In this document: positions 1 through 6,341 of the stretch, in pieces
How the letters are laid out: each line of letters starts with the position of its first letter
Position numbering within the stretch: the first letter of the stretch is position 1
Notes under the pieces: model-generated
Seen by the model: the letters and a program-made list of their open reading frames with translations, nothing else
The model's database searches: none
Told to the model about the DNA's origin: nothing
Translations under genes and position numbers: made by a program
Sequence record: MZ358387
From: Shigella virus Moo19
Reading direction: 5' to 3' (one strand)
Length of the DNA: 64,000 nucleotides

Positions 1-129
1 CTGGAGAATGCTTTCTCAGATTTCAGCAATGTTATGCGTAATCGTGACCAGAAAGCTGACTTAACTCCGGCTGACAAAGACTTCCAGGCAATCCTCAATG
101 ACCTGAAGAAACCAGGCAAACTTCATTAA
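1..129 (+). CDS. 3' end of an upstream gene (partial, last 42 codons); possibly RNA polymerase II small subunit by position
   Basis: Open frame 1 from the window edge to TAA at 127-129; sits directly upstream of the RNAP II catalytic-subunit gene. Function inferred from synteny only. Confidence 0.3.
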   Translation: MENAFSDFSNVMRNRDQKADLTPADKDFQAILNDLKKPGKLH

Positions 130-178
130 TTAACCCATATGCGTGTTCCATACAGGAACCAGATGCAGGAGTAATAAA

Positions 179-1396
179 ATGCAAACTTTTACCGCTAAAC
201 AGTACCTGGCTATCGATATCGCTAACAACTTTGGTCTGGATAAGAAGACCTGGGATGAGCGTTTGGCCTGGTTCGATGAGAACAAAGACAACCTCATGAA
301 CCAGTTAGAAGCAGCAGAGGAACCTGCTCTGTATTATGCAGGCGTTAAAGCCTATGAAGACATGCTGGCTGGTAAGCCTATTGGTTATACCATTGCACTG
401 GATGCTACTGCATCTGGTCTGCAATTACTGGCATGTCTGACTGGTGACCGTAAGGCTGCTCAGTTGTGTAACGTAGTGAACTACTATGGTAGCGAAGGCA
501 AGGCTCGTCGTAGCGATGCCTACACCGTTATCTACCGTACCATGCTGGAAGCCGTAGGTCAGTCTTCTCGTGTTAAACGTGATGACTGTAAGCAGGCTGT
601 AATGACTGCATTCTATGGCTCAGAAGCTAAGCCTAAAGAAGTGTTCGGTGAAGGTATTCTGTTGAAGACCTTTGAACACGTAATGGGTATCGAAGCACCT
701 GGCCCGTGGGAACTGAACAAGTTCTATCTGCAATGTGGTAACCCGGATGCAACCTCATATTTATGGGTTCTGCCGGATAACTTCCATTGTCAGATTAAGG
801 TAATGGTTGACGAAGTACAGACCATTAACTTTATGAACAAGCCATATGACATCATTCGCAAAGTACAGGGTACTGAAGAGAAGACTCGTATGCTCTCTGC
901 TAATACCACTCACTCAATTGATGGAATGGTAGTGCGTGAGATGCTGCGTCGTTGTAACTATGATGCTGACCTGATTACCTATGTAAAACAGCTTTGCTAT
1001 GGCGTACAGGAATCAAATGTATTCCTGCCAGAAAACGCTGAAATGGTGCATGAGTTATGGAACCACTATGAACGTAGTGGTTTCCTGTCCATGCGTATCT
1101 GCGATTATCTGGATGCAGGCTCCATCGCTCTGGTTGACCGTCAGGTCATCCTTGAGATGCTGGAGACTCTGCCTAAGAAGCCATTCAAAGTACTGACTGT
1201 ACATGACTGCTTCCGTTGCCATCCTAATTATGGCAATGACCTGCGTCGTCAATACAATCAGATTCTGTCTGACATTGCTAAATCCAACCTGCTGTCATTC
1301 ATTCTGTCTCAGGTACTGGGACAAGAGTTCACTGCTGGTAAGCTGGACAATGACATGTGGAAAGATGTCTTAGACGCTGAGTACGCATTAAGCTAA
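179..1396 (+). CDS. T7-like single-subunit RNA polymerase, catalytic subunit (N4 RNAP II large-subunit-like)
   Basis: AGGAG at 167-171 then ATG at 179. Palm motifs of T7-type RNAP are present: motif A 'IALDATASGLQ', motif B 'KQAVMTAFYGS', motif C 'VHDCFRC'. About 405 aa. Confidence 0.8.
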   Translation: MQTFTAKQYLAIDIANNFGLDKKTWDERLAWFDENKDNLMNQLEAAEEPALYYAGVKAYEDMLAGKPIGYTIALDATASGLQLLACLTGDRKAAQLCNVVNYYGSEGKARRSDAYTVIYRTMLEAVGQSSRVKRDDCKQAVMTAFYGSEAKPKEVFGEGILLKTFEHVMGIEAPGPWELNKFYLQCGNPDATSYLWVLPDNFHCQIKVMVDEVQTINFMNKPYDIIRKVQGTEEKTRMLSANTTHSIDGMVVREMLRRCNYDADLITYVKQLCYGVQESNVFLPENAEMVHELWNHYERSGFLSMRICDYLDAGSIALVDRQVILEMLETLPKKPFKVLTVHDCFRCHPNYGNDLRRQYNQILSDIAKSNLLSFILSQVLGQEFTAGKLDNDMWKDVLDAEYALS

Positions 1397-1400
1397 TATG

Positions 1401-1436
1401 AGCCTCATACCTTCGGGTATGGGGCTTATTTTTTTC
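1401..1436 (+). terminator. rho-independent terminator after the RNAP II gene
   Basis: 11-bp stem agcctcatacc/ggtatggggct (one mismatch), loop ttcg, then TATTTTTTT. Confidence 0.7.
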
Positions 1437-1453
1437 GAATTGAGGACACAACT

Positions 1454-2275
1454 ATGCCTGAGTTAAAAGTTGCTTTTAACAAAGACACCTATGTAGCTAC
1501 CGTACTGGATGCCAGTGGTAGCGTTCCGAGTGGTTCTGTGAACGTAGGTACTTTCTTCCATCCTGATGAGACTTACCCTGATAGTTATGTTATCTATCAT
1601 GGTGTTCGTGAACTCCTGTATAAGCGTTCTGAAGTTGACCCGGCACAACCAGGCTTCTGGCCTGAGAACATTACCAACATGCAAGCTGTTACCATCGATA
1701 ACAAGGCTACTGCACGTCTGGTACTGAATACCTCCCTACCTCGTGTAGTATCTACCATCGAAGGTGGTAAGGTTACTCTGTCTGTTGTTGCTCTGGGTGG
1801 TAAGGCTCCTCTTAAATACAAGTGGGAGTTCCGTGCACCTAATGCTTCAACCTGGACTGCTGTATCTGGGCAGACTACTGCTAATCTGGTTCTGGATAAT
1901 ATCGATGCTGATAAAGCAGGTGAGTATAAAGTCACCGTTACCGATGCTGCCGGAACCAGTGTAGATAGTACTGCTCTGGTAGCTGTGGGTGCTTATCCAC
2001 CACCAGCACTGACGGGCATTAAGGCTACGCCTACTTCCCTGTCTCTGTCTGTAGCTACTGACGCTGCTGGTAAAACTGTAGCTCTGTCTGCTATCCCGAC
2101 TGATGCTGAACTGGGTACATTGTCTATTAAGACTGCTCCAGATTCTGCTCGTGCTACTGCTACTATTTCTGGTTCTACTCTGACTGTTAAACCAGTGGCT
2201 GCTGGTGCTGCAACTTCTGTTGTAGTAACCAACGGTAAAGTTGATGTGACTATCACTATCAACGTTGCAGCATAA
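1454..2275 (+). CDS. Ig-like domain protein, putative capsid decoration protein (N4 gp17-like by position)
   Basis: ATG 1454 after GAGGA. Ser/Thr/Val-rich beta-type sequence with Ig-like signature ('KYKWEF...GEYKVTVTDAAGTSV'). Follows the RNAP II gene as gp17 does in N4 (from memory). Confidence 0.45.
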   Translation: MPELKVAFNKDTYVATVLDASGSVPSGSVNVGTFFHPDETYPDSYVIYHGVRELLYKRSEVDPAQPGFWPENITNMQAVTIDNKATARLVLNTSLPRVVSTIEGGKVTLSVVALGGKAPLKYKWEFRAPNASTWTAVSGQTTANLVLDNIDADKAGEYKVTVTDAAGTSVDSTALVAVGAYPPPALTGIKATPTSLSLSVATDAAGKTVALSAIPTDAELGTLSIKTAPDSARATATISGSTLTVKPVAAGAATSVVVTNGKVDVTITINVAA

Positions 2276-2296
2276 GCTGATAGTTTTGTTTGGCTA

Positions 2297-2325
2297 AAGC
2301 CCTCCTTGTGAGGGCTTTCTTGTAT
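2297..2325 (+). terminator. terminator-like hairpin (weak U-tract)
   Basis: Stem aagccctc/gagggctt, loop cttgt, followed by 'tcttgtatc'. Confidence 0.35.
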
Positions 2326-2341
2326 CTATAGGAGAGTAAAA

Positions 2342-2656
2342 GTGACTAACAAATTACGTGTATGGCATATCCCGCAAGTGCCAATGAAAGCATTCTTTGT
2401 AGAATGCGATAGCATTCAGGAAGCTGTTAAAATTCGTAGTGCACTGGCAGATTACGACTTGTTCCAGTATGAGAACAATGTCAAAGGTGATTACTGTAAC
2501 GCCAGCGGTATTCATATCTGGGATGAAACTCTGTCTGACCAAGACCTCATCGATATGGAACTAGACGACCGTTGGGTTGACTGGTTCTATGAAGATGAAA
2601 ATGAATACTTCGATGACCCAGAAGAATATCTGGAATGGCTTGCTACGCAATCCTGA
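2342..2656 (+). CDS. small highly acidic protein (hypothetical; DNA-mimic candidate)
   Basis: GTG 2342 preceded by GGAG at 2331-2334. C-terminal half is dense in D/E and aromatic residues ('DMELDDRWVDWFYEDENEYFDDPEEYLEW'). Confidence 0.45.
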   Translation: MTNKLRVWHIPQVPMKAFFVECDSIQEAVKIRSALADYDLFQYENNVKGDYCNASGIHIWDETLSDQDLIDMELDDRWVDWFYEDENEYFDDPEEYLEWLATQS

Positions 2657-2703
2657 TTGCTTTTTTGGGTTGAGCAAACCCGTAACATTCCTTTGATATC
2701 CTT

Positions 2704-2731
2704 GACCTCCCTAAATGGGAGGTCTTTTTTT
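2704..2731 (+). terminator. rho-independent terminator
   Basis: Stem gacctccc/gggaggtc, loop taaat, then TTTTTTT. Confidence 0.75.
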
Positions 2732-2758
2732 GGTTGTTATCTACTTTGGAAAATAAAT

Positions 2759-2959
2759 ATGAAATTTTCTGATTTACTCTGGGCAATTCTATTCCTGTTA
2801 CTTACTGCCTTTATTTATGGGGTAGTACTGCCTAATGCAGTATCTGCTTCAGATAGTATAAGTGTAGTAATTGGATTGATTGTTTCTATTATGTGGCCTG
2901 TTATAGCAGGTCGTGTTGTTTACCTTATCGTTAAGAAACGGAAGAAGAAACATGCGTAA
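2759..2959 (+). CDS. small membrane protein with two predicted TM helices
   Basis: ATG 2759 downstream of terminator 2704-2731. Two hydrophobic helices ('LLWAILFLLLTAFIYGVVL', 'VVIGLIVSIMWPVIAG') and a basic tail. Overlaps the next gene by 8 nt. Confidence 0.45.
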   Translation: MKFSDLLWAILFLLLTAFIYGVVLPNAVSASDSISVVIGLIVSIMWPVIAGRVVYLIVKKRKKKHA

Positions 2960-3788
2960 ATTTATTATAGGTTGTTTACTGGCAATAGTTGCAATGGCTA
3001 GTCTTACTGGTTGTTATCAACGAGTAGAGCCAGGTAATGTAGGTATTATCGTTAACCGTTTGGGTGACGATAAGGGCGTTGACCAACAAGTAAAAGGCGT
3101 AGGCCGTTACTGGATTGGTTGGAATGAAGACCTGTATACGTTCCCGACATTCAAACAGATGAAAACCTACGACGATAAGTTTTACTTCCAACTGTCGGAC
3201 GGTACTCAAATTGGCCATCAACTGGCTATCAGCTATAAGGTCAACCCGACCAAAGTAGCGACCATCTTCCAGACCTACCGTAAAGGTGTCGATGAAATCA
3301 CTGACCAGGATTTACGTCAGCGTATTGCCGATATCCTGAACCGTCAGGGTAACCTGATTAACACTGACAAGTTCATTGACGGTGGTAAGTCACGTTTGCT
3401 GGATAGTGTAGCTGATGCAGTTAAAAAAGAGATGGAGCCAGTCGGTATCGACATTATGGCTATCTCCTGGGTAGGTGCACCGGAATACCCGGACAACGTG
3501 AAGCGTGCAATTAACGCGAAAGTTGAAGCTACCCAGAAAACCCTGCAACGTGAGCAAGAAGTGCAACAGCGTATCGCTGAAGCAAATATGGCTCGTGAGC
3601 AAGCCAAAGGTGAAGCTGATGCCGTAGTACTGAAAGCAAAAGCAGAAGCTGATGCTATTAAGCTGCGTGGTGATGCACTTCGTGAAAACCCTGGTGTAAT
3701 GGAACTGGAAGCAATCAACAAGTGGAATGGTGTATTACCAACCACAATGATTCCAGGTGCAGCCACACCATTTGTGCCTGTTAAATAA
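2952..3788 (+). CDS. SPFH/band-7 (HflC/prohibitin-like) domain lipoprotein
   Basis: ATG 2952. Signal peptide with canonical lipobox 'MRKFIIGCLLAIVAMASLTGC'. SPFH-type core followed by an Ala/Glu/Lys-rich coiled coil ('QREQEVQQRIAEANMAREQAKGEADAVVLKAKAEADAIKLRGDA'). Confidence 0.65.
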   Translation: MRKFIIGCLLAIVAMASLTGCYQRVEPGNVGIIVNRLGDDKGVDQQVKGVGRYWIGWNEDLYTFPTFKQMKTYDDKFYFQLSDGTQIGHQLAISYKVNPTKVATIFQTYRKGVDEITDQDLRQRIADILNRQGNLINTDKFIDGGKSRLLDSVADAVKKEMEPVGIDIMAISWVGAPEYPDNVKRAINAKVEATQKTLQREQEVQQRIAEANMAREQAKGEADAVVLKAKAEADAIKLRGDALRENPGVMELEAINKWNGVLPTTMIPGAATPFVPVK

Positions 3789-3794
3789 CAATAA

Positions 3795-3821
3795 AACCCC
3801 CAGACATTGCTGGGGGTTTTT
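3795..3821 (+). terminator. rho-independent terminator
   Basis: 9-bp GC-rich stem 'aacccccag'/'ctgggggtt' with loop 'acattg', followed by TTTTT. Confidence 0.75.
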
Positions 3822-3837
3822 ACGTCTGGAAAGTGTA

Positions 3838-4188
3838 ATGGAAAAGAACCGCAGGAAGACACTCATTGAGCGTCTGCTTGCCCGTATCAAGATAATGGAT
3901 ATGGGCTATACCGTTAATGGTCAGCCAAGCCTATGCCACATCTGGACTGGTTCCCACTCTGGGAATGGTCGAGGTGGTCAATATGGCAGGATTTCCGTGA
4001 ATGGAGTTACCTCTGCTACACATATTGTGGCCTATACCCACTATCACGGTTACATCCCTTGCAAAATGCAGGTAGACCATCTCTGTAATAACCGTCTGTG
4101 CTGTAACCCGGAACATCTCGAACTGGTGACTCACCAAGAGAACCAGAGAAGAAGAGCTGCACGCCAAACTAAAGGTAAAAAGAAATGA
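3838..4188 (+). CDS. HNH homing endonuclease
   Basis: Start placed at ATG 3838 because the upstream in-frame ATG lies across the terminator. Motif 'HIWTGSHSGNGRGGQYGRISVNG...VDHLCNNRLCCNPEHLELVTHQEN'. Confidence 0.7.
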   Translation: MEKNRRKTLIERLLARIKIMDMGYTVNGQPSLCHIWTGSHSGNGRGGQYGRISVNGVTSATHIVAYTHYHGYIPCKMQVDHLCNNRLCCNPEHLELVTHQENQRRRAARQTKGKKK

Positions 4189-4355
4189 TGAACTATTTAG
4201 GTGGTATTACTCTTGGTTGGCTTATTACCGCATTAGTTTTTGTATATCTGCCAGATGAGCATATTGCTAAAGCAAAAGCCATGAAAGAAACTTGCGAACA
4301 AAAACTTTCTCGTGAGCAGCAATGTGTAATGCAATTCGTACCGGAGAAAAAATGA
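4185..4355 (+). CDS. small membrane protein (56 aa), not in the ORF track
   Basis: ATGATG at 4185 overlaps the HNH stop codon (ATGA). One TM helix 'GGITLGWLITALVFVYL'. Ends TGA 4353-4355. Confidence 0.3.
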   Translation: MMNYLGGITLGWLITALVFVYLPDEHIAKAKAMKETCEQKLSREQQCVMQFVPEKK

Positions 4356-4549
4356 CCTTAACTCGTACTCAACAGTCTACCCTGCGAATGATTGCAGGTG
4401 GTTTAACTCGTGTTGCACCGAATAACAAAACAGCCCTTGCTTTGAAAAAAGCAGGGCTGATTACATTCAATCCACCTTTCGGGTGGGTATGTACTAAAGC
4501 TGGTCTTGAAAAGAACCAGGAACTGATAGGTATGCGTAAGCCTACCTGA
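4352..4549 (+). CDS. hypothetical protein
   Basis: ATG 4352 preceded by GGAG at 4343-4346; the ATG at 4322 in the ORF track has no RBS. Confidence 0.35.
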   Translation: MTLTRTQQSTLRMIAGGLTRVAPNNKTALALKKAGLITFNPPFGWVCTKAGLEKNQELIGMRKPT

Positions 4550-4577
4550 TAATTAATTCCCTAACAGGAGATGCAAA

Positions 4578-4922
4578 ATGAGTGACCGTACTCCCTCAAC
4601 TGATGCCCTGGAAACTCTCGGCATGATTCACTTCAAACCGGAACATCGTGACGCTATTCACTTAGCTGTTGAACCAGTTAAAGCAGGATTGCCACTGTCA
4701 CCCGGTGAACGCATTGGTATCGTGGATGGCTTTGCTTATCCGGCTGGTTATAAACTGGTACTGGAAAACAAAGCATTGGTAGTCCCTTACCACGGAATTG
4801 TTGACCCATTCCTGCCTAAAGGTGTTATTACACCAGGCAAATCCTTCTGGTTCGTAATGGCTCCACGTATGGTTACATCTCTACGTCATGTCTGGTCACA
4901 CCCGGAGTTCCCTGATGAGTGA
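4578..4922 (+). CDS. hypothetical protein
   Basis: Strong RBS AGGAG 4566-4570 with 7-nt spacer to ATG 4578. Confidence 0.5.
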   Translation: MSDRTPSTDALETLGMIHFKPEHRDAIHLAVEPVKAGLPLSPGERIGIVDGFAYPAGYKLVLENKALVVPYHGIVDPFLPKGVITPGKSFWFVMAPRMVTSLRHVWSHPEFPDE

Positions 4923-5274
4923 ACCATTAGATATTAATGATACCGGGCTGTGTGAAGCACTGCTCATCATGGGCGACGAAAAAGCCGTAGCCTGGGCATG
5001 GATTCGAGGTTATACCAAGAATCTGCTACAACAAATCGAAGAGTATCTCGGTGACACAGACTATAAATATCAGTCCAATGTCATTGAAGATGAATACGAC
5101 TTAATGGAACTCGCTGACGGTCACCAAAATGGTAACTGGGGCGATTACATGATTGTCGGTGGACTCTTTGAAGGTGAAAGAATTGACCCAACTTTTTGGA
5201 ACAAATATGCCCTCGTCCGTGGTATTCCTCGTGAAGAAATTTCAGAAAGTAATCTCTTCTCTTGCTCCTGTTAA
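4915..5274 (+). CDS. hypothetical protein
   Basis: ATG 4915 preceded by GGAG 4904-4907; overlaps the upstream stop by 8 nt. Acidic. Confidence 0.45.
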   Translation: MSEPLDINDTGLCEALLIMGDEKAVAWAWIRGYTKNLLQQIEEYLGDTDYKYQSNVIEDEYDLMELADGHQNGNWGDYMIVGGLFEGERIDPTFWNKYALVRGIPREEISESNLFSCSC

Positions 5275-5285
5275 GGAATGAAATA

Positions 5286-6341
5286 ATGTCAAACATCGAT
5301 TCACTTGTCGTGTGTAACTCAAGACAAGCTCGTAAATTTATCATCCGTGCATTGCAGGCAGGTAACGTACCGTTCCTGACCTCCTCACCCGGTATGGGTA
5401 AATCTGCAATGATTCATAGCATTGCAGAAGAATTTGGCATGAAGCTGATTGACCATCGTCTGTCTACTTCTGCCCCAGAAGACCTGTCTGGTCTGCCACG
5501 TTTCCGTCCAGATGGACGTGCAGAGTTTGCACCGTTTGCAGACCTGTTCCCACTGGAGGGTGACGAAGTACCCGAAGGTTATAACGGCTGGCTCCTATTC
5601 CTTGATGAGTTCAACTCAGCCAAGAAAGAAGTTGTTGCTGCTGCATACAAACTGATTCTCGACCGTATGACTGGTCAGAAGAAGCTGCATCCTCAAGTGA
5701 TGATTGTATGTGCTGGTAACAAACAAACTGACCGTGCAATCGTTAACCCAATGGGTACTGCAATGCAGTCTCGTGTTGTGCATCTGGAAATGGAAATCAA
5801 CTTCGACATCTTTGTCGAAGACGTAATGATTCCTCAGAAATGGGATGAGCGTTTAGTTGCATTCCTCCATGCTAATACGTCGTATCTGCATGACTTCGAC
5901 CCGGCACACAAGAACAAAACGTTCTGCTGTCCTCGTACCTGGGACTTCGTTAACGAAGACCTAAAGAACCAGCCTCCTGGTGCTCTGCCTGATGAAGATT
6001 CTATCTTCTATGCTGGTCACGTCACTGCTGGTAAGGCAACTGAGTTCGTTCAGTTTACTCAGGTATATAACCAACTGGTCACTATTGAGCAAGTGGTTAA
6101 AGACCCTAAAGAGGCACGTTTACCGAAAGATAACAACCTCTGCTGGGCAACTGTTACCTATCTGGCTAATAAGACCACGGTAGATAACTTCCCGGATGTA
6201 GTTGAGTATATCCAGCGTCTGGATAAGATGACTCACCGCATCCTGTACTTCCGTACTGTGCATAAAATCGTACCAGATGTTACTGGCCTCCCTGAATGGC
6301 GTAAAGCTGGTGCAGAACTGTCTCGCTACCTACACGGATAA
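5286..6341 (+). CDS. MoxR-like AAA+ ATPase
   Basis: ATG 5286 after AGGA. Walker A 'SSPGMGKSA'; MoxR-type Walker B/sensor 'LLFLDEFNSA'. Confidence 0.65.
   Translation: MSNIDSLVVCNSRQARKFIIRALQAGNVPFLTSSPGMGKSAMIHSIAEEFGMKLIDHRLSTSAPEDLSGLPRFRPDGRAEFAPFADLFPLEGDEVPEGYNGWLLFLDEFNSAKKEVVAAAYKLILDRMTGQKKLHPQVMIVCAGNKQTDRAIVNPMGTAMQSRVVHLEMEINFDIFVEDVMIPQKWDERLVAFLHANTSYLHDFDPAHKNKTFCCPRTWDFVNEDLKNQPPGALPDEDSIFYAGHVTAGKATEFVQFTQVYNQLVTIEQVVKDPKEARLPKDNNLCWATVTYLANKTTVDNFPDVVEYIQRLDKMTHRILYFRTVHKIVPDVTGLPEWRKAGAELSRYLHG

Follow-up and report, generated by a model that had tools for sequence, protein, structure and literature searches.

The question raised by the ORF described here is why an N4-like phage would encode a small and very acidic protein. 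A first-pass annotation had suggested from its composition that it could be a DNA mimic of the Ocr/ArdA type, directed against restriction or related host defences. The gene lies in a stretch of 64,000 nt of Shigella virus Moo19 (record MZ358387; one strand, 5' to 3'), referred to below as the window. In a megablast search, bases 1-6000 matched 83 phage records. All were N4-like (Enquatrovirinae), and Escherichia phage Jgk1 matched best (83.9% identity over 65% of the query). The ORF map has the N4 layout, with rightward early/middle genes to about 30 kb and leftward late genes after this point, the late block containing a 3493-aa virion RNA polymerase ORF. The window is most of the genome of an N4-like podovirus. 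The ORF and its flanking signals are listed in Table 1.

Table 1. The Moo19 gp17-family gene and its flanking signals (window coordinates)
Feature	Coordinates	Strand	Basis
CDS, 104 aa, N4 gp18 orthologue, P22 gp17 family (PF17420 / PHROG 1510)	2342..2656	+	ORF map, profiles, alignment
Shine-Dalgarno AGGAG, 7 nt 5' of GTG	2330..2334	+	direct sequence reading
Upstream hairpin, 9-bp stem AAAGCCCTC/GAGGGCTTT, weak T tail	2296..2318	+	hairpin search
Intrinsic-terminator-like hairpin, 8-bp stem GACCTCCC/GGGAGGTC at 2704-2724, followed by TTTTTTT	2704..2731	+	hairpin search

The ORF list of the window gives GTG as the start codon. The first in-frame ATG corresponds to Met15, and residues 5-14 (LRVWHIPQVP), which precede it, are conserved in the family alignment; the GTG start is therefore supported. 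In phage N4, gp18 is preceded by the same TATAGGAGAGTAAA Shine-Dalgarno context. The upstream hairpin closely follows the Hoc-like decoration gene, which stops at 2275, and is probably a leaky terminator or an RNA-stabilising hairpin; an identical stem-loop core (GCCCTC-CTTGT-GAGGGC) is present upstream of N4 gp18. The downstream hairpin separates the ORF from the gene for a gp19-like membrane protein. A hairpin and T-run occupy the same place downstream of N4 gp18, with another stem sequence (GCCCTCC/GGAGGGC) in which pairing is kept. The first-pass annotation had described a small acidic ORF with its own ribosome binding site and bracketed by hairpins; both descriptions hold, and the bracketing extends to N4. 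Hairpins of this kind are frequent in the region 1300-4400, where 11 terminator-like sites were observed and 1.8 were expected from shuffles, so that most genes there are individually bracketed. A strong one with a 14-bp stem and a T-run follows the RNAPII subunit gene (1398-1429, + strand). Another strong one, after the SPFH lipoprotein gene, was found on the - strand (3793-3820), where its palindromic stem could serve either strand.

The order of genes in the window (143-1396, 1454-2275, 2342-2656, 2759-2959 and 2952-3788) agrees with the N4 annotation, namely RNAPII subunit, Hoc-like gp17, gp18, gp19 membrane protein and gp20 lipoprotein. The fourth of these (+ strand), directly past the terminator, encodes an N4 gp19-like hydrophobic protein of 66 aa, and the fifth (+ strand) an N4 gp20-like lipoprotein of 278 aa whose lipobox reads LTGC and which contains an SPFH/Band_7 domain (Pfam E 1.2e-22). 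About 30 nt at the 3' end of the lipoprotein gene are shared with an HNH endonuclease ORF (3757-4188, + strand; HNH_3 E 9.4e-19), which corresponds to the gp22 'endonuclease' region of N4.

Among N4-like phages, the interval from the Hoc-like decoration gene to the gp24-like ATPase has a mosaic make-up. In PhAPEC7 (L005, 3486-4183) it contains three small, unrelated ORFs and lacks a gp18 homologue, and Jgk1, the closest genome overall, carries only an N4-type gp18 allele, 63% identical to that of Moo19 (L007, 3259-3561). The gene studied here belongs to the rightward early/middle block and occupies a terminator-bracketed slot of its own within a variable accessory region. A second strongly acidic small ORF is present in the same region (4888-5274, + strand; 128 aa, pI 4.25, 18% D/E, no Pfam match) and is a candidate for another small inhibitor.

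Profile searches placed the protein in a named family. It matched PF17420, 'GP17, superinfection exclusion gene product 17', with E 2.9e-46 and 156.1 bits (curated cut-off 25 bits) over profile positions 1-96 of 98, and PHROG 1510 with E 5.3e-49. Nothing besides PF17420 was found in a Pfam scan at E<=10, NCBIfam and PADLOC profile scans gave no matches, and a sequence search against the PDB returned noise only (best E 0.3). Sequence searches recovered 214 homologues, and PF17420 was found in 120 of 120 among the matches listed. In an alignment of 46 sequences, the Moo19 protein keeps the family residue in all 16 invariant columns (V7, P11, Q12, V13, P14, F18, L35, Y38, D39, F41, Q42, K48, D50, Y51, G56 and W78). 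Most of these columns are at least 95% conserved among 268 members, V13 dropping to 82%. The family is characterised by proteins of about 80-110 aa that are acidic, soluble and single-domain, and the Moo19 product agrees with this description in size, acidity, predicted solubility and its single predicted domain.

The family is also widely distributed. By tblastn, homologues were detected in 323 phage records, including P22-like temperate phages, a subset of N4-like phages, Kuttervirus/Vi01-like myoviruses and even Bacillus phage SP-10. A search with the family profile among 1.84 billion representatives returned 1176 clusters at E<=1e-3, of which 753 reached E<=1e-10. The nearest phage alleles are those of U1G and Gamaleyavirus AN24P2 (84.6% identity), and the closest match in the protein collection is at most 87% identical. 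Judged by these comparisons, the protein is a new allele in a family that already has a name and is annotated widely, and its membership in the P22 gp17 family together with its orthology to N4 gp18 is as good as certain.

Some homologues have N- or C-terminal extensions, with no recurrent terminal extension among them. In the annotation of three of N4-like type (P0012, P0019 and P0028), about 50 extra aa at the N terminus include a Walker-A-like motif (GAPGTGKS / GAQCIGKS). This extension is too short for an NTPase and may represent an upstream ORF, either fused or mis-called. In the distant phage contexts examined, no conserved gene partner of the family was found. A Band_7 gene adjoins the family gene in L011 (2955-3902), an unrelated metagenomic phage contig of 41 kb; such a gene stands one gene further away in N4-like phages and is missing from the other contexts examined. 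In metagenomic phage contigs, the family gene lies among small early genes without annotation that form long arrays in one orientation, and in one contig it comes after YqaJ, RecT and SSB.

The acidity of the protein is pronounced. It contains 14 D and 11 E for 4 K and 3 R, giving a net charge of -18 and a pI of 4.05, and no other + strand ORF of 80 aa or more in the window has a product as acidic. Residues 53-104 have a net charge of -17, with 35% D/E and 17% F/W/Y, and the strongly acidic, aromatic-rich C-terminal half reported in the first-pass annotation is thus confirmed. The same acidity runs through the family and is therefore not a chance feature of this allele. Median net charge is -14 and median pI 4.15 for 120 homologues. 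Among 147 representatives of 50%-identity clusters, 133 have a pI below 5; their median pI is 4.41, and the median net charge of the domain only is -11. In the alignment of 268 members, about 12 columns contain at least 70% D/E and basic residues are nearly missing from the C-terminal half.

We obtained an AlphaFold2 (AF2) model from the 46-sequence alignment. It is a compact alpha/beta structure predicted with high confidence, with a mean pLDDT of 92.6 and a pTM of 0.81, with secondary structure elements in the order beta-beta-alpha(25-44)-beta-alpha(66-71)-beta-alpha(93-103). Block pLDDT values across residues 51-104 are 87-96. This region is folded into the domain and is therefore not a disordered tail, as the term used in the first-pass annotation would imply; the acidic half is an integral part of the predicted domain. 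No transmembrane segment was detected (maximum 19-aa Kyte-Doolittle hydropathy 0.58, GRAVY -0.61). Together, the model and the alignments show a product that is predicted to be soluble, compact and of alpha/beta type, with a conserved and strongly acidic surface.

Could such a surface resemble the B-DNA phosphate backbone closely enough to titrate type I R-M or BREX enzymes, in the manner of Ocr and ArdA? The charge of the protein, the conservation of the acidic columns throughout the family and the vicinity of ral in P22-like phages all agree with this view. Mimicry of nucleic acid against another target is also conceivable, the candidate AbiU discussed below having been likened to a FokI-like nuclease (PMC13064643). 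Nevertheless, neither the Ocr nor the ArdA family was matched in Pfam, even at E<=10. The structure prediction that the first-pass annotation had named as a check gave a small alpha/beta sandwich to which no DNA-mimic structure could be matched: Foldseek of the model against the PDB returned nothing at E<0.1, a BFVD fold search returned family members only, and Ocr, ArdA or other solved DNA mimics were not among the fold matches, the rows for the Ung inhibitor p56 (E 5-6) being noise. Moreover, P22-like phages already have ral for restriction alleviation, and the phenotype of the founding member, as reported in papers citing the original work, is escape from the exclusion exerted by a prophage rather than alleviation of restriction. 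The Ocr/ArdA-type assignment thus found no support in profile or fold searches, and we consider a DNA mimic of this type quite improbable.

The founding member, gp17 of Salmonella phage P22, is 62.4% identical to the Moo19 protein over 97% of its length. Gene 17 can be viewed in the P22-like phage ST104, where it belongs to the PL operon and is flanked by ral (restriction alleviation) on one side and by c3, kil, erf, abc1 and abc2 on the other. The products of abc1 and abc2 are anti-RecBCD factors. Two genes upstream of gene 17, ST104 carries orf19, annotated as a 'pentapeptide repeat-containing protein' (L003, 2757-3401). Pentapeptide repeat proteins include DNA mimics such as Qnr and MfpA.

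The phenotype of P22 17- mutants is available here through citing papers, which refer to different primary papers. According to one of them, P22 gp17 is necessary against superinfection exclusion by the Fels-2 prophage (PMC6486243, citing Semerjian, Malloy and Poteete 1989). The same anti-Fels-2 role is stated in another (PMC9409062, citing Susskind et al. 1974). Literature searches on the P22 gp17 / N4 gp18 family (PF17420, PHROG 1510) and on AbiU with Fels-2 yielded one annotation paper and otherwise genome announcements; neither a study of mechanism nor an experiment on N4 gp18 or any other lytic-phage homologue was found. Since P22 gp17 is reported by these citing papers to counteract exclusion, the 'superinfection exclusion' label describes the opposite role. 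If the cited statement is right, the product name therefore appears to be a misnomer for an anti-exclusion function.

Taken literally, the product name would make the protein a genuine superinfection-exclusion factor of the infecting phage, stopping secondary phages from entering or developing. PF17420, PHROG 1510 and hundreds of GenBank records carry this name, and in both the window and N4 the genes directly downstream encode a small membrane protein and an SPFH lipoprotein. However, the label goes back to P22 gp17, which the citing papers describe as counteracting exclusion, and a terminator stands between the ORF and the downstream membrane genes. Characterised entry-blocking Sie proteins, for example T4 Imm and Sp and P22 SieA, are membrane proteins. 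The Moo19 product does not have this membrane character, as judged by the hydropathy scan, in which neither a signal peptide nor a transmembrane segment was seen. A true exclusion function is, in our estimation, very improbable.

The reading that we favour is that the Moo19 protein is a counter-defence factor enabling growth in cells whose prophage encodes exclusion or abortive infection of the Fels-2 (P2-like) type. This role is the most likely one because the protein is 62% identical to P22 gp17, for which the citing papers report an anti-Fels-2 phenotype; by this homology we hold it to be probable, with moderate confidence. The anti-defence idea of the first-pass annotation is accordingly retained in part: counter-defence is made plausible by homology to P22 gp17, while its Ocr/ArdA and anti-restriction specifics are not.

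The protein could also serve host takeover, independently of any defence, by binding a DNA- or RNA-binding protein of the host such as a nucleoid protein, RNA polymerase or a nuclease such as RecBCD. An early/middle position amid small accessory genes, P22-like neighbours (kil, abc1/abc2) that act on host proteins and the conserved acidic surface of the family would all fit, and a distribution over 1176 clusters would suit a conserved host target. The gene is dispensable, however, being missing from close relatives on the same host species (PhAPEC7), and the sole phenotype reported for the family in the citing papers depends on a particular prophage. Host takeover fits this dispensability less well, and we judge it unlikely.

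If the counter-defence reading is correct, Fels-2 itself may indicate a target. Its genome (NC_010463) contains two cargo genes between the replication gene A and the portal gene Q. This gpA-gpQ interval is the place of old and tin in P2 and has been described as a defence hotspot of P2-like prophages (bioRxiv 10.1101/2021.01.21.427644). One of the two genes, STM2723.1 (565 aa), encodes AbiU, as identified by PADLOC (E 2.7e-112), with a Pfam AIPR match (E 8.8e-43) and a match to a PHROG 'Abi alpha-like'. To the other, STM2726 (243 aa), no function was assigned by our searches. AbiU is thus one of at least two cargo genes in the Fels-2 hotspot. Since Fels-2 carries an AbiU/AIPR gene in a defence hotspot of P2 type, AbiU is the leading candidate target; that it is the actual target of the Moo19 protein is a tentative proposal that we would not call probable. 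Because the family extends far beyond enterobacterial phages, with its 1176 clusters, a single fixed target for all members is uncertain.

The Fels-2-type AIPR gene is rare in E. coli, where it was found in 7 of 5426 complete genomes (97.4% DNA identity in six). Its presence there means that coliphages can meet AbiU/AIPR. In E. coli 13C1079T, the gene (97% DNA identity to that of Fels-2) is located in the gpA-portal hotspot of a P2-like prophage (L016, 2178-5698; the Fels-2 counterpart is L002, 22639-25335). In this genome, the one examined for cargo, a DUF6575 protein and a hypothetical protein replace STM2726, and the AbiU/AIPR gene seems to be mobile as a cassette of its own. A recent review likens the AF2 model of lactococcal AbiU to a FokI-like nuclease and describes the mechanism of AbiU as obscure (PMC13064643).

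From these elements a mechanism can be proposed. The Moo19 protein would be made before the late genes and would probably act as a single-component, stoichiometric inhibitor. Its conserved acidic face would dock on a basic, possibly nucleic-acid-binding, surface of a prophage abortive-infection protein, and this docking would prevent exclusion of the phage. The leading candidate for the protein bound would be AbiU/AIPR in the gpA-gpQ hotspot of Fels-2. In this scheme it is our inference that binding is direct, that AbiU is the protein bound and that nucleic acid is mimicked at all.

Extended to the whole family, the proposal would be that GP17 proteins, which occur in temperate and lytic phages of many hosts, constitute a widespread, mis-annotated anti-defence family whose acidic face mimics nucleic acid and blocks AbiU/AIPR proteins of P2-like hotspots, a generalisation that we regard as speculative and rather doubtful. 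If true, it would pair the AIPR proteins of enterobacteria, whose mechanism is obscure, with a first inhibitor that could also serve as a probe. The link between gp17 and AbiU is, in any case, a cheap and directly testable hypothesis for a defence/anti-defence pair. Beside this hypothesis, a second point of value is the apparent mis-annotation of a large, structurally unassigned family with a conserved acidic surface. The 'superinfection exclusion' label has spread over hundreds of phage genomes, some of them from candidates for therapy, for example Kuttervirus and N4-like phages.

How does the Moo19 protein compare with known systems? With Escherichia phage N4 gp18, annotated as 'similar to P22 gp17', it shares synteny, length, flanking hairpins and the context of the ribosome binding site. 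Sequence identity is 61.6%, and gp18 is less close than the U1G and Gamaleyavirus AN24P2 alleles. The likeness to P22 gp17 extends to a length of 104 aa, an equal acidity and the same invariant motifs (RVWHIPQVP, LADYDLFQ, KxDY and W78). However, P22 is temperate and carries gene 17 in its PL operon near ral, kil and abc, whereas Moo19 is a strictly lytic N4-like phage in which the gene occupies a slot bracketed by terminators in the middle region.

Like T7 Ocr (gp0.3) and ArdA, the Moo19 protein is small, very acidic, made before the late genes and may plausibly inhibit a defence protein stoichiometrically. They are unrelated to it in sequence, and the target class that the papers citing the P22 work report for the GP17 family is prophage exclusion rather than type I R-M. 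Ocr is a helical dimer and ArdA a three-domain protein of about 165 aa, both different from the alpha/beta fold predicted here; in contrast to ArdA, the Moo19 product of 104 aa is predicted to form a single compact domain. Surt of Vibrio phages is a validated anti-AbiU protein (bioRxiv 10.1101/2024.06.14.598830), the only one that we found. No GP17-family motif was found in the searched text of the supplementary sequence tables of that paper, and homology between Surt and the GP17 family therefore appears unlikely. If the AbiU hypothesis is right, Surt and the Moo19 protein would nevertheless share the same target class.
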